From Candidatus Omnitrophota bacterium (GTDB lineage Bacteria; Omnitrophota; Omnitrophia; Omnitrophales; Danuiimicrobiaceae), in contig JACQQP010000172.1 of the NCBI GenBank assembly GCA_016206945.1, forward strand, positions 1 to 46,422: a stretch of 46,422 nucleotides of DNA, given 5' to 3'. The position numbers and the translations under genes were made by a program. Positions 37,215-41,138 of this stretch are shown piece after piece. Positions within the stretch are counted from its first letter, which is position 1. Each line of letters starts with the position of its first letter. Below the pieces are notes generated by a model that did not search any database, was not told the DNA's origin, and saw only the letters and a list, made by a program, of their open reading frames with translations.

Positions 37215-37709
37215 ATGGAGAAGCGTTACACCTCTGCTCGAAAAGGAAATCACGTCTTTATTAGGAATTGCTCCTCCCGATTTCGCATTAACCCCGAGGC
37301 CGTAGGTCGTTTCGTTCACGGTGTCCTCAAGATACTTCGATTGAAACATACGGCGATCAGTTTTGTCTTTGTTTCAGATACTGAGATTCAGCGTATAAAC
37401 CGCAGGCACTTGGGTCATGATTGGGCGACCGATGTCTTGGCTTTTCCCTATGGAGATTCCATTGGAGCGAGCAAAGTGAATCACGGCCGTTCCTTTCTTG
37501 GCGAAATCATTGTCTCCCCTAGGCAAGCCAAGCTTTATTCGGAAAAGTTTCATTTATCGTTTCACGAAGAATTTGCTCGTTATCTGTGTCATGGAATCCT
37601 TCATTTGAAAGGGTATTCGGATCAATCCGTACGAGCTAAGGCGATCATGGGGAAAGCAGAGGATCACTTGCTCAAAACTTTCGCTCCCGAGATAAAACAC
37701 CTGATCTAA
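37215..37709 (+). CDS. ybeY: rRNA maturation endoribonuclease YbeY
   Basis: The ATDVLAFP motif and the zinc motif HGILHLKGYSD are present. It lies in the conserved phoH-ybeY context. Confidence 0.88.
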   Translation: MEKRYTSARKGNHVFIRNCSSRFRINPEAVGRFVHGVLKILRLKHTAISFVFVSDTEIQRINRRHLGHDWATDVLAFPYGDSIGASKVNHGRSFLGEIIVSPRQAKLYSEKFHLSFHEEFARYLCHGILHLKGYSDQSVRAKAIMGKAEDHLLKTFAPEIKHLI

Positions 37710-37711
37710 CG

Positions 37712-38473
37712 ATGGCGATTAAAAAGGCAGAGGCTTTTGTTTTAAAAAGATGGTCTTTTCGGGAAACCTCGCTTCTCGTTACTGTGTTCACGCGGGAGAA
37801 TGGAAAAATTAAGGGTCTTGTCAAGGGAGCGCGAAAAGAAAAAAATCCCCTCGCCGTTCGGTTTGAACCTTTTACCCATTTATTGTTGAATTATTATGAG
37901 AAAACGAAATCTGAAACCCATTTGATTTCTCATGCTGATATTTTGAGCTCAAATGCTTTCCTCAGAAGCCGCTTGGATTTTTTCAGCTACGCCAGTTACC
38001 AAGCAGATTTGCTGGACTCACTTTTTGGGTTGCACGATCCCCAAGTTCGGGTTTTCGAACTTTTAAGGGTTTCGTTTAATCTATTTCAAAAGGCTTCGCC
38101 CATGATGGTTACGCGCGTATTTGAAGCAAAGTTATTGGACCAAGCGGGTTTTCTTCCCAATTTAGCGCATTGCACGTCATGTGGTAGAGAGAATTTTGAG
38201 CGAAGTTTTTTTAGTTCAAGGCAAGGAGGGCTTCTCTGTGCACAGTGTGAAGGACGGGAGTTTGGATCTGTGCCTATTTCTAAGAAAGCCATAGAAGCGC
38301 TCCTCTTTTTTCTAGTGACGCCTATGGAAAAGGCAATTGCGATGCCTCTGGATGGTCAGGTTGCTGGGGAGCTTGAACGGATCGGTAGAAAATTCATCGA
38401 GTTTCGGTTGGAATACCCCTTAAAATCCTCGCGCTTTTTATCTGAAGTTAAACCTTTCATTAAAATCATGTAA
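37712..38473 (+). CDS. recO: DNA repair protein RecO
   Basis: The N-terminus is an OB-fold region (EAFVLKRWSFRETSLLVTVFTRENGKIKGLVKGAR). A Cys4 zinc motif is present (CTSCGRE...CAQCEG). Confidence 0.85.
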   Translation: MAIKKAEAFVLKRWSFRETSLLVTVFTRENGKIKGLVKGARKEKNPLAVRFEPFTHLLLNYYEKTKSETHLISHADILSSNAFLRSRLDFFSYASYQADLLDSLFGLHDPQVRVFELLRVSFNLFQKASPMMVTRVFEAKLLDQAGFLPNLAHCTSCGRENFERSFFSSRQGGLLCAQCEGREFGSVPISKKAIEALLFFLVTPMEKAIAMPLDGQVAGELERIGRKFIEFRLEYPLKSSRFLSEVKPFIKIM

Positions 38474-38546
38474 GTCATTTATAATAAACCAGTAACGTCG
38501 AATTTCCTACCTCGTTTGACACCCCAAATATCATGTGTTAGCTTTT

Positions 38547-38575
38547 AAGGGAGATTAACCGATCTCTCTTTTTTT
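38547..38575 (+). terminator. Probable intrinsic terminator after recO
   Basis: A 9-bp stem (38547-55 / 38562-70, with one G-U pair) and the 6-nt loop TAACCG are followed by five more T residues (38571-75). Confidence 0.5.
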
Positions 38576-38627
38576 AGGTGGTAAAGACAAGACATTTATA
38601 AAGCTTGATTTACCGAGGGGTGAACGA

Positions 38628-39401
38628 ATGCCACAAGATGAGAGAAGTTACTTTTACTTTGATATCCCAAAGCAAGCGCGGGATTCGGCAATCAGCTATT
38701 TGCTTCACGCGCTTTTAAAGTCGCGCTCGGCATGCCAGTTGCCGTCCAATCAGGATCAATTCGATGAAGATGTGAACATCTATTTGGCGCACCTTCTCTT
38801 TGCCTGTTCACTTCCTGATTACTTAGGAGCAGTAAATCGGTATCTCAGTATGAACGTAAGCGAAATGACAAATCTGATCGAGCAAAATGACGATCGGATT
38901 GTGCGCTATTTTATCTACAAAGTAAATGCGGATCACTTGATGGTGCATTTGGGGATCTTTCAGGATCTTGAAAACGAGCACCGTCTGTTTAGAAAATCGG
39001 AACCTCAATTTTCGAGCATGGCTCAGAGTTACTATCGGCAGGCTGCCAGTTATAACCGTAGGATATATCGGCGCGAGACTGCCATTGGCAGCGTTTTGGA
39101 GAAACTCGCCGTCGGATTTGACCGTTACAAGAGGATCCTTCGCTTTGCCCGTAAGGAATTTTTTCATTTTACGAATCGGTTTCAGGATGAGTCATTTGAA
39201 CAGTTCTGTAACGCGGTAGATCGATATGAAAGAGAGGAACGCCTAAATGGAGCCATTGACCGTTTCCTCGATAGTTATGCCGAATGGCTGAAGGTAAAAG
39301 ACCCGGCGGCACGGTTGAGGTTGATTGATTATGCCAGGGCGCTCCAAAAGTTAGATCCGGAATTTTCATTTAATTTTGAGGGGGAAGCGGAAGCAGCATG
39401 A
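38628..39401 (+). CDS. Hypothetical protein (257 aa), with a C-terminal module shared by the two downstream small ORFs
   Basis: The ATG follows GAGGGGTGA. I recognise no family. It looks helical and charged. Residues 213-246 (FLDSYAEW...LDPEF) align without gaps with both downstream ORFs. Confidence 0.6.
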   Translation: MPQDERSYFYFDIPKQARDSAISYLLHALLKSRSACQLPSNQDQFDEDVNIYLAHLLFACSLPDYLGAVNRYLSMNVSEMTNLIEQNDDRIVRYFIYKVNADHLMVHLGIFQDLENEHRLFRKSEPQFSSMAQSYYRQAASYNRRIYRRETAIGSVLEKLAVGFDRYKRILRFARKEFFHFTNRFQDESFEQFCNAVDRYEREERLNGAIDRFLDSYAEWLKVKDPAARLRLIDYARALQKLDPEFSFNFEGEAEAA

Positions 39402-39604
39402 AAATCTTATCTCGATTTCCGCAAGCGGCAGGGTGTCGACATCGGATGAAAAGGGATGTGGAGGGCCGTTTTCTTGAGCTTTATTCGATGTGGCATGAGA
39501 CACATGACCTTCACTTGAAAAGGCGGCTTTATGCTTCTTTGAATAGGGTGATGCGTCGGATGCCCAACTTCGACTTGAGGCGCCGATTTAAGCAGGCTTT
39601 TTGA
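39398..39604 (+). CDS. Hypothetical small protein (68 aa), paralogous module
   Basis: Its start overlaps the upstream stop (ATGA). Residues 25-58 (FLELYSMW...RMPNF) have the same 34-aa spacing as the upstream C-terminus. Confidence 0.5.
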   Translation: MKILSRFPQAAGCRHRMKRDVEGRFLELYSMWHETHDLHLKRRLYASLNRVMRRMPNFDLRRRFKQAF

Positions 39605-39614
39605 GGCGAATCTT

Positions 39615-39809
39615 ATGAAATCGAATTTTTTAATCCTTTGCCTACAAGATGAGGATGATTTTGAGCAGGAAATGAACCGAAGACAAGACGAGTTTCTGGA
39701 TCTTTTTTCCCTCTACCGCCAAACCGGCCTTTCTTGGATTAAGGAAGAGTTACTATTGAAAGCCTATCAACTTCACCTCCTTGATCCAGAATTTAGATTC
39801 CACTTATAA
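39615..39809 (+). CDS. Hypothetical small protein (64 aa), paralogous module
   Basis: Residues 27-60 (FLDLFSLY...LLDPEF) form the same module. It is the last gene before a consensus promoter. Confidence 0.5.
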   Translation: MKSNFLILCLQDEDDFEQEMNRRQDEFLDLFSLYRQTGLSWIKEELLLKAYQLHLLDPEFRFHL

Positions 39810-39866
39810 GACCAAGCTTCTCAGGCGATCACCTTTCCTCGTACTTCTTTGACCCTTCAGCCCTAT

Positions 39867-39895
39867 TTGACACGGTTAGTTGCGTCTGTTATAAT
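39867..39895 (+). promoter_or_regulatory. Sigma-70-type promoter upstream of the aminotransferase/folK/panC block
   Basis: TTGACA (39867-72), a 17-nt spacer and TATAAT (39890-95) are all perfect consensus. They lie ~60 nt upstream of ATG 39954. Confidence 0.65.
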
Positions 39896-39953
39896 CCGCC
39901 CCTCTTAACTTCTTGCAAGACAATCAATTGCGTTAAAAATCAGAGCCTGAAAG

Positions 39954-41138
39954 ATGAGAAGAACTAGTATTTCAATCGAAGCAGCCGAGAGACTCAAAAA
40001 GCTGCCGCCTTACCTTTTTGCTGAAATCGACCGTCTCAAGCGGGAGTTGACTGCACAGGGTAAGGACGTAATCGACTTGGGAGTTGGAGATCCAGATCTG
40101 GCAACTCCGTCCTTTATAATCGAAGCGCTTTCTGAAGCGGCAAAAAATCCTGTCAACCATCGTTATGCCCTCGATCAAGGGATGCCTGAACTGAGGCGCG
40201 CGATTGCTTCGTGGTACCGGTCGCGCTTCGGTGTAGAACTTAATCCAGATTCGGAGGTGCTTCCTCTCATTGGCTCCAAAGAAGGAATTGGTCACATTCC
40301 GCTTGCTTTGATAAACCCGGGCGATCTGGTGCTCGTTCCAGATCCGGGTTATCCCGTTTACAAATCAGGCACGTACTTTGCCGGCGGTCAACCTCATTTG
40401 CTCGCCCTTTTGGAAGAGAATGATTACCTTGTTGATTTCAGTTCTATTGAAGAAAATATTTTAGAACGAGCGAAACTTCTATTCCTGAATTACCCCAACA
40501 ATCCCACGACAGCGTGTGCGAGTAAGGATTTTTTCACAAGTGCCATTAAAACGGCGCGCGACTGTGGGTTTGTCATATGCCATGATGCCGCCTATACAGA
40601 AATTGCCTACGATGGTTATGAAGCGCCTAGTTTTCTTCAAGCGGAGGGAGCCAAGGAAGTGGGCATTGAGTTTCATTCGCTTTCGAAAACTTTTAATATG
40701 ACGGGCTGGCGTGTGGGCTTCGCCTGTGGGAACGCTAAAATTTTGGAACTTCTTGGAAAAGTGAAGTCCAATTTGGACTCCGGAATTTTTCAAGCGATCC
40801 AATGGGCTGCGGTAAAAGCTCTAGCGAGTGGAAGAGAAGAGGCAAATAAAAATTCAAAAATTTACGAACGCAGGCGGGATCTTTTAGTCGATGGATTAAA
40901 TGCTTTGGGCTGGCGGGTTCCCAAGCCGAAAGCTACTTTTTATGTCTGGGCGCCCGTGCCGCCAGGTTATACGTCGCAGGAACTTGCCGCGCGACTTTTG
41001 AAAGAAGCAAACGTCATTGTCACTCCAGGAAATGGCTTTGGTCCGAATGGGGAAGGCTACTTTCGTATGTCCCTTACCTTGAAAGACGAGCGGATCGAGG
41101 AATCACTCAAGCGGATCAAAAAGCTTCACAGTCGATAA
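39954..41138 (+). CDS. dapL: Class I/II aminotransferase, probably LL-diaminopimelate aminotransferase
   Basis: LPPYLFAEIDRLK...DVIDLGVGDPD is the N-terminal pattern I associate with this DapL subtype. The PLP-lysine motif SLSKTFNMTGWR is present. Confidence 0.7.
   Translation: MRRTSISIEAAERLKKLPPYLFAEIDRLKRELTAQGKDVIDLGVGDPDLATPSFIIEALSEAAKNPVNHRYALDQGMPELRRAIASWYRSRFGVELNPDSEVLPLIGSKEGIGHIPLALINPGDLVLVPDPGYPVYKSGTYFAGGQPHLLALLEENDYLVDFSSIEENILERAKLLFLNYPNNPTTACASKDFFTSAIKTARDCGFVICHDAAYTEIAYDGYEAPSFLQAEGAKEVGIEFHSLSKTFNMTGWRVGFACGNAKILELLGKVKSNLDSGIFQAIQWAAVKALASGREEANKNSKIYERRRDLLVDGLNALGWRVPKPKATFYVWAPVPPGYTSQELAARLLKEANVIVTPGNGFGPNGEGYFRMSLTLKDERIEESLKRIKKLHSR

Follow-up and report, generated by a model that had tools for sequence, protein, structure and literature searches.

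Genetic organization of the three-gene operon

The window analyzed in this study is the whole 46,422-nucleotide (nt) stretch of contig JACQQP010000172.1 from a Candidatus Omnitrophota bacterium (assembly GCA_016206945.1). At positions 38628 to 39809 it carries an operon of three open reading frames (ORFs), and an earlier reading of the bare sequence (hereafter the original prediction) had proposed that a module of 34 amino acids (aa) is present in each of the three encoded proteins. Our analysis showed that ORF1 founded an uncharacterised family of all-helical proteins, in which the last ~46 residues make up a helix-turn-helix hairpin capped by DPxFxF, and that ORF2 and ORF3 are two mini-paralogs of this C-terminal part. 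The ORFs of 257, 68 and 64 aa lie exactly at the predicted coordinates, with the TGA of ORF1 and the ATG of ORF2 overlapping as ATGA, and GAGG-type ribosome-binding sites can be read 7-8 nt upstream of the ATG codons of ORF1 and ORF3. The genes and these sites are as follows:

38628..39401, + strand: ORF1, 257 aa, all-helical, cytoplasmic, uncharacterised family
38615-20, + strand: GAGGGG, ribosome-binding site of ORF1
39398..39604, + strand: ORF2, 68 aa, basic mini-paralog of the ORF1 tail
39615..39809, + strand: ORF3, 64 aa, acidic mini-paralog of the ORF1 tail
39603-06, + strand: GAGG, ribosome-binding site of ORF3

Homology of the C-terminal module

The segments that had been proposed to be related read in the window as they had been quoted, and the module was found to span about 46-49 residues, somewhat more than the 34 first suggested. 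Its positions are given below:

39231..39377, + strand: module of ORF1, residues 202-250; the 34-aa core first proposed is 39264-39365, residues 213-246
39470-39571, + strand: 34-aa core of the ORF2 module; the ORF2 family ends ...FxxAF
39693-39794, + strand: 34-aa core of the ORF3 module

Pairwise identity of the three 34-aa segments is as low as had been claimed (9-11 of 34), with 9, 11 and 9 identical residues of 34 and BLOSUM62 scores of 37, 35 and 36. Shuffled sequences and profile searches had been named as checks on the module, and both came out in its favor. When the best ungapped segment between the whole proteins was compared with 2000 shuffles, the observed scores were reached by only 0-19 of them: none for ORF1 and ORF3 (score 58), 19 for ORF1 and ORF2 (score 42), and 15 for ORF2 and ORF3 (score 37). 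The best segments of all three pairs share one mutually consistent register, which is also that of the original prediction and is kept in the hhalign alignments of the family profiles. These alignments matched residues 202-250 of ORF1 to residues 16-64 of ORF3 (97% probability, E 7.4e-11) and residues 205-250 of ORF1 to residues 17-62 of ORF2 (95.5% probability, E 1.4e-8), and gave a probability of 58.6% (E 9.5e-5) for ORF2 and ORF3. The ORF2 and ORF3 sequences of related loci were also used to build hidden Markov models (HMMs). In the second iteration, these models recognised the C-termini of dozens of ORF1 proteins, with E values as low as 1e-9, and the ORF2 and ORF3 families matched one another at about E 5e-5; no further carrier of the module turned up in the window or in ~80 related loci. 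Judged by these comparisons, the module common to ORF1, ORF2 and ORF3 reflects real homology.

In the ORF1 family alignment, residues F213, L214, D215, Y217, W220, P244, F246 and F248 are invariant or nearly so, and the main anchors of the module are kept in relatives at 21-45% identity. Across all three families, the conserved columns comprise the hydrophobic positions 1, 2, 5, 8, 16, 24, 27, 34 and 36 of the module, together with Thr at position 11, Glu at position 26 and Pro at position 32. In the ORF2 family, the module is followed by a conserved tail, RxxFQxAF.

Distribution of the three families and coding status of the small genes

Searching a set of 5.8 billion proteins at E<=0.01 returned 229 relatives of ORF1, and an exhaustive search gave 378 clusters at 50% identity; every named member is annotated as hypothetical. 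The same set contains 470 relatives of ORF3, almost all exactly 64 aa long, and 256 relatives of ORF2, of 58 or 68 aa (best 120 listed for each). The small ORFs had been put forward on condition that they are conserved and translated in relatives. Beyond these numbers and held lengths, the differences between close relatives at codon positions 1/2/3 amount to 0.38/0.27/0.61 for ORF2 and 0.28/0.14/0.56 for ORF3, with the excess at the third position that coding sequences show. The ratio of nonsynonymous to synonymous substitution rates (dN/dS), taken from pairs with unsaturated dS, is about 0.25 for ORF2 and about 0.07 for ORF3. These patterns mark ORF2 and ORF3 as real genes of fixed length under purifying selection. 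An ORF2 homologue is also present in locus L005, where annotators had missed it.

A few distant members of the ORF1 family (P0233, P0248 and P0247) come from metagenome-assembled genomes labelled Chitinivibrionales bacterium, 'archaeon' and 'bacterium', the Chitinivibrionales protein MDD5672604.1 being one such relative; the family may reach beyond Omnitrophota, or those bins may be contaminated. Over-long relatives of ORF1 (P0240, P0236 and others) were considered as domain fusions and rejected, as they hold no Pfam domain and look frameshifted or chimeric.

Searches against known families and folds

The view that none of the three proteins belongs to a recognised family was borne out by all searches. 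For the three proteins and 27 ORF1 homologues, only sub-threshold noise was obtained with Pfam (hmmscan, E<=1) and with NCBIfam, PADLOC gave no match and PHROGs nothing significant. A profile search of the PDB returned coiled-coil noise only, with E values of at least 0.0065. In Foldseek searches, the model of ORF1 reached a best E of 0.23 with TM-scores below 0.3 against the PDB and a best E of 0.46 against BFVD, and the model of ORF3 matched only generic hairpins in the PDB (E>6), the best TM-scores belonging to a designed homo-oligomeric hairpin. Where we speak of no known fold, this refers to the PDB and BFVD for ORF1 and to the PDB for ORF3. A toxin-antitoxin or anti-phage defence locus was rejected on the PADLOC and PHROGs results and on the fixed synteny after recO (72 of 76 loci).

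Predicted structure and charge of the hairpin

AlphaFold2 predicted ORF1 as an all-helical protein of 10 helices (mean pLDDT 85, pTM 0.67), in which the module consists of the end of helix 188-223, a two-residue turn, helix 226-242 and the tail DPEFSF (DPxFxF). ORF3 was predicted as a hairpin (pLDDT 84) of helices 13-37 and 40-56, which are in register with helices 188-223 and 226-242 of ORF1 when superposed via the sequence alignment. The hairpin turns read VKDPA, THDLH and TGLSW. The hydrophobic columns are conserved beyond what the inside of a two-helix hairpin would need, which suggests that they form a buried interface with something else.

The three modules differ in charge. ORF2 has an isoelectric point (pI) of 11.5 and a net charge of +10.8 in the window (family pI mostly 10-11.7), against a pI of 4.6 and a net charge of −6.3 for ORF3 (family pI mostly 4.4-5.3), and residues 201-257 of ORF1 have a pI of 4.7 and a net charge of −4.1. 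This inversion is tied to particular columns. At module position 3, D or E is found in 86% of ORF1 sequences and D in 100% of ORF3 sequences, as opposed to R or K in 82% of ORF2 sequences; similar inversions between basic ORF2 and acidic ORF1 and ORF3 occur at positions −1 and 37, and ORF2 and ORF3 are further inverted at positions 0, 18 and 19. The net charge of ORF3 is −1.1 in loci without ORF2 vs −4.1 in loci with it, a comparison based on few independent lineages.

Outside the module, the ORF1 family alignment and distant relatives display three signature motifs, DEDVNxYLxxLL (residues 46-57), NAD (100-102) and YYxxA (135-139). The invariant polar residues of the ORF1 body (D46-E47-D48-x-N50, D89, K98, N100-A-D102 and Y135-Y136) suggest a ligand-binding or catalytic site.

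Conservation and evolutionary history of the operon

Gene neighbourhoods, the survey of which had been suggested as a check, were compared in 80 species-representative genomes and metagenome contigs, giving 83 non-redundant loci for presence and absence. The order recO-ORF1-(ORF2-ORF3) was found to be conserved. The stop codon of ORF1 and the start of ORF2 overlap by 1-23 nt in 38 of 44 loci, and the gap between ORF2 and ORF3 is mostly 0-45 nt. In agreement with the predicted operon, the three genes are co-transcribed from one conserved likely promoter, and ORF2 is translationally coupled to ORF1.

Both small genes are present in 38 of the 83 loci, ORF2 only in 10, an ORF3-like gene only (directly after ORF1) in 8, and neither in 27. 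On a neighbour-joining tree of ORF1, these states track the clades: ORF3-like genes occur in all three major clades, between which ORF1 identity falls to about 35%, and ORF2 occurs in two of the three. The loci with neither gene make up most of one deep clade, in which ORF1 is 35-40% identical to that of the window. There, dapL, folK or an unrelated gene directly follows ORF1, and no diverged small ORF was found 3′ of ORF1 in the 27 loci, iterated HMMs adding nothing. ORF1 keeps its module in all loci, with or without the small genes. The absence of the small genes from a deep ORF1 clade points to ORF1 and its module as the starting state. We infer that the 3′ end of ORF1 was copied early to give ORF3, that ORF2 arose later or diverged faster, and that several losses followed. 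Thus, within Omnitrophota the 3′ end of ORF1 was duplicated twice, long ago, which is the old rather than recent triplication that had been surmised from the low identity.

In one clade (L019, L026, L028, L031, L033, L035, L040, L046 and others) ORF2 starts 20-23 nt inside ORF1, and the junction is a conserved dual-coding stretch, ATGAnnnGnAAnTGCGCGTAA, in which the same bases encode the conserved ORF1 tail ...RKCA and the N-terminus of ORF2, ...NARK. An apparent fusion of ORF1 and ORF2 in L036 (a 334-aa frame) was discarded as an assembly artefact, as it spans a run of N (scaffold gap) at 1770-1779.

The hairpin as a putative assembly interface

We propose, tentatively and at somewhat less than even confidence, that the hairpin is a protein-protein assembly interface, and that the mini-paralogs dock on the hairpin of ORF1 and/or on each other, basic ORF2 with acidic partners. 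This proposal draws on the homology of the module, the in-register topology, the conserved anchors, the column-specific charge inversion, the lower acidity of ORF3 in loci without ORF2, and the fixed lengths and purifying selection of the small genes, and SinI/SinR serves as a precedent for it (PMC3163267). According to this model, a two-helix hairpin, which has no core of its own, would pair with a second hairpin, and its conserved hydrophobic face (F/L-L-x-x-Y-x-x-W/Y ... A/L-x-E-L ... P-x-F-x-F/L) would be buried between the two. Docking of ORF2 and ORF3 on the C-terminal hairpin of ORF1 and/or on each other would yield a heteromer of fixed stoichiometry, in which basic ORF2 would pair with the acidic modules of ORF1 and ORF3. 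In clades with the small genes, the working unit would be this complex rather than ORF1 alone. The tight operon and the translational coupling favor co-production and therefore argue for subunits in a fixed ratio.

Several points weigh against this model. In the 27 loci that lack small genes, the module is retained by ORF1 all the same, so it should have a function independent of the mini-paralogs, perhaps no more than packing against the ORF1 body, as the pLDDT of 87-92 for this part of the monomer model would allow. About 10 loci have lost ORF3, and others have lost ORF2 or both small genes, which shows that neither small protein is indispensable. The structure models are single-chain AlphaFold2 predictions. 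Across loci, the charge of ORF2 is only weakly correlated with that of ORF3 plus the ORF1 tail (rho −0.31, p 0.06), in a relation confounded by phylogeny.

A more far-reaching version of the assembly model would make ORF1 (with a new fold), ORF2 and ORF3 an undescribed, charge-coded three-chain assembly, that is, an operon-encoded bacterial microProtein system, in which ORF2 might bind nucleic acid and the complex might act in the DNA/RNA housekeeping context of recO. We regard this version as doubtful.

The foremost alternative holds that ORF2 and/or ORF3 act as antagonists under certain conditions, in the manner of SinI or microProteins. They would cap a hairpin used by ORF1 for self-association, break up or alter ORF1 oligomers and thereby tune its activity instead of belonging to the working unit. 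The evidence of homology and topology serves it equally well, and retention of the module by ORF1 in loci without the small genes is what a primary role in self-association would lead one to expect. Moreover, binding to the parent is the default state of an interaction domain just after its duplication, and SinI/SinR (PMC3163267) and microProteins (PMC9638782) provide precedents. However, our scan found no convincing internal promoter from which the small genes could be separately expressed, with just two matches at 9 of 12 positions, and the translational coupling seen in 38 of 44 loci sets a constant ratio between ORF1 and the small proteins, as befits subunits more than a regulated antagonist. 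Antagonism is therefore possible, though we consider it unlikely.

That the module serves all three proteins as a common tag for docking or targeting, which would make them co-clients of one external partner (a compartment shell, chaperone, protease adaptor or export apparatus) and not partners of each other, appears improbable. In ORF1 and ORF3, the module does occupy the very C-terminus and finishes in an invariant P-x-F-x-F, and a C-terminal position is typical of targeting signals. Nevertheless, the HMM searches of the 46-kb window and the ~80 loci revealed no further carrier, the best 120 of 470 and of 256 database matches being all of ORF3-like or ORF2-like length. At 46 aa, the module is also far longer than known cargo peptides, the conserved RxxFQxAF tail of ORF2 follows it, and inspection of the three sequences by eye showed neither a signal peptide nor a membrane segment.

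A similarly slim prospect is that the modules share ancestry and have lost the interaction, with ORF2 now binding nucleic acid or membranes, ORF3 acting as an independent acidic factor and the operon merely co-expressing them. The modest hhalign probability for ORF2 and ORF3 (58.6%), the net charge of +10.8 of ORF2 and the independent loss of either small gene would fit such divergence. On the other side, the hydrophobic anchors are still the most conserved columns in all three families, the basic residues of ORF2 fall exactly on the conserved acidic columns of ORF1 and ORF3, and gene order and coupling have been kept. Finally, an artefact, be it chance likeness of low-complexity helices or duplication remnants that do not code, is excluded, as its sole support, the identity of 9-11 of 34 among the window sequences, did not outlast testing in the face of profile-profile E values down to 7e-11, significant shuffle tests, hundreds of length-conserved relatives, and codon-position patterns and dN/dS values (0.07-0.25) of coding sequence under selection.

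Comparison with known systems

By analogy, a free-standing paralog of an interaction module encoded beside its parent gene is an arrangement of a known kind, most like SinI/SinR (and SlrA/SlrR) of Bacillus subtilis. SinI (~57 aa) binds SinR as a heterodimer and has in common with it the helical surface at the C-terminus used for multimerisation, and transcription of sinI is under Spo0A control (PMC3163267). In both cases, the small protein is a homologue of the helical C-terminal part of the larger protein encoded next to it, here with hhalign E values of 7e-11 and 1.4e-8 and helices in register. Hetero-binding is known for SinI and SinR, whereas pairing in the present operon is predicted from sequence and single-chain models. 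The parent here is a 257-aa all-helical protein without a recognised DNA-binding domain or structural match, and it is accompanied by two mini-paralogs of opposite charge, whose genes follow the parent gene and are coupled to it in translation. Membership in the SinI family was ruled out: at E<=1, Pfam gave no match to the SinI domain (PF08671) for ORF1, ORF2, ORF3 or the 27 ORF1 homologues, and none to a helix-turn-helix family in ORF1 or its relatives, as an Xre-type DNA-binding repressor in the place of SinR would require, the best Foldseek hit of ORF1 in the PDB being that at E 0.23.

MicroProteins such as LITTLE ZIPPER and Id are small single-domain proteins that share ancestry with one domain of a larger protein and act by engaging that compatible domain (PMC9638782). 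ORF2 (68 aa) and ORF3 (64 aa, modelled as a hairpin) resemble them in being single domains of less than 20 kDa and in their relation to part of a larger protein. The concept is, however, eukaryotic and mostly concerns dimerisation domains of transcription factors, while the present proteins are bacterial, share an operon with their parent and have a predicted binding.

Truncated H-NS paralogs and Hha-type modulators, which are bacterial, co-oligomerise with H-NS. These small proteins resemble the oligomerisation part of H-NS (PMC6606824) and, as ORF2 and ORF3 do with ORF1, match the larger protein in a single part only. The part concerned is N-terminal and belongs to a nucleoid protein that binds DNA, and the genes are often on mobile elements, in contrast to the vertically inherited, syntenic core locus described here. 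Neither the H-NS paralogs nor the Hha-type proteins have sequence similarity to the present proteins.

The helical domain of LXG proteins and two small helical Lap proteins, encoded adjacent to one another, form a three-chain complex. The Lap proteins are not known to be paralogous to the LXG domain. The LXG toxin with Lap1 and Lap2 has been described as a tripartite complex of type VII secretion (PMC10801868). The likeness lies in the helical domain of a large protein joined by two small helical proteins from adjacent genes; the difference is that LXG/Lap belongs to a Gram-positive secretion system. Pfam gave no match to WXG100 or LXG for the three proteins and the 27 ORF1 homologues, and no search for type VII secretion genes was made in the window. 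A WXG100-like identity was rejected on this missing profile match, on the lack of WxG in the hairpin turns and on length (64-68 aa vs ~100 aa).

What sets the operon apart from the known examples is the occurrence of two oppositely charged copies, their downstream, coupled position, and a parent without a recognisable fold in the PDB or BFVD. The operon defines three uncharacterised families with a clear signature in a phylum without a cultured model, and it offers a natural example of how partial duplication of the 3′ end of a gene can give rise to free-standing interaction modules. If the hairpins do pair, it would be a bacterial counterpart of the eukaryotic microProteins, with two oppositely charged copies. 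The operon does not touch on any question that has long been open, and candidate phyla contain many conserved hypothetical operons.

Regulatory surroundings of the operon

The original prediction had set the operon between an apparent terminator and a consensus promoter. Both signals are present, and two further elements were located upstream of ORF1:

38516..38544, + strand: likely operon promoter, TTGACA (38516-21), 17-nt spacer, TG (38536-37), TAGCTT (38539-44)
38547..38575, + strand: hairpin of 10 base pairs with a T-run, located by the scan at 38547-38570; RNA fold −10.6 kcal/mol, z −2.5
38593..38603, + strand: leader box CATTTATAAAG, ~30 nt 5′ of the ORF1 start, conserved in the closest relatives
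39867..39895, + strand: downstream promoter, perfect TTGACA-17-TATAAT sigma-70 consensus plus TG, 12/12 hexamer positions

A promoter-like element just 5′ of the hairpin is conserved in 67 of 71 loci, in all ORF1 clades, and in most of these 67 the pattern TTGAC-N16-18-TAnnnT lies 83-115 nt 5′ of the ORF1 ATG. A consensus scan had missed the element at 38516-38544 because its −10 hexamer agrees only at T1, A2 and T6. Relatives keep the hairpin and T-run with different sequences, and the arrangement of promoter and hairpin recurs in two ORF1 clades. Given the conserved element 5′ of it, the hairpin is not simply the upstream boundary of the operon, which refines that part of the prediction; it is either the recO terminator interleaved with the operon promoter or a 5′ stem-loop or attenuator of the operon itself. 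A search of Rfam with positions 38300-40100 found no RNA family.

A transcript from the element at 38516-38544 would start at or inside the terminator stem. The TTATAAA/TTTATAA motif of the leader box occurs in 21 of 71 loci, and CATTTATAAAG could be a second −10 element or an operator. In loci L061-L085 (e.g., L065, L069 and L072), which belong to the ORF1 clade without small genes, tandem TGCTATATATTGCTATAT-like repeats ~20-50 nt 5′ of ORF1 replace the hairpin and the TTTATAAA box, which suggests a different regulatory layout.

Flanking genes and other observations

The immediate upstream neighbour of ORF1 is recO in 72 of the 76 loci whose sequence extends far enough to tell. This gene is part of a conserved block, phoH-ybeY-recO-ORF1-(ORF2-ORF3)-dapL-folK-panC-panD; because the unrelated genes of the ybeY-recO-...-dapL-folK-panC block are all kept in place just as firmly, we gave the adjacency of recO little functional weight. 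In the window (37215-38473) and in L001, L003 and L005, recO directly follows ybeY, with no era between them, and L005 has a 7TM-HD protein between phoH and ybeY. The gene after the downstream promoter at 39867-39895 encodes a class I/II aminotransferase (39954-41138; Aminotran_1_2, E 3e-64) and was taken as dapL. In the clade without ORF2 and ORF3 (L063-L077), two small, apparently secreted and paralogous-looking proteins are encoded ~150-1000 nt 3′ of ORF1, and they carry the motifs ...SQKLGFGFLNITAGW... and ...GKFCFGIKNSLLGWMTPWAEA....

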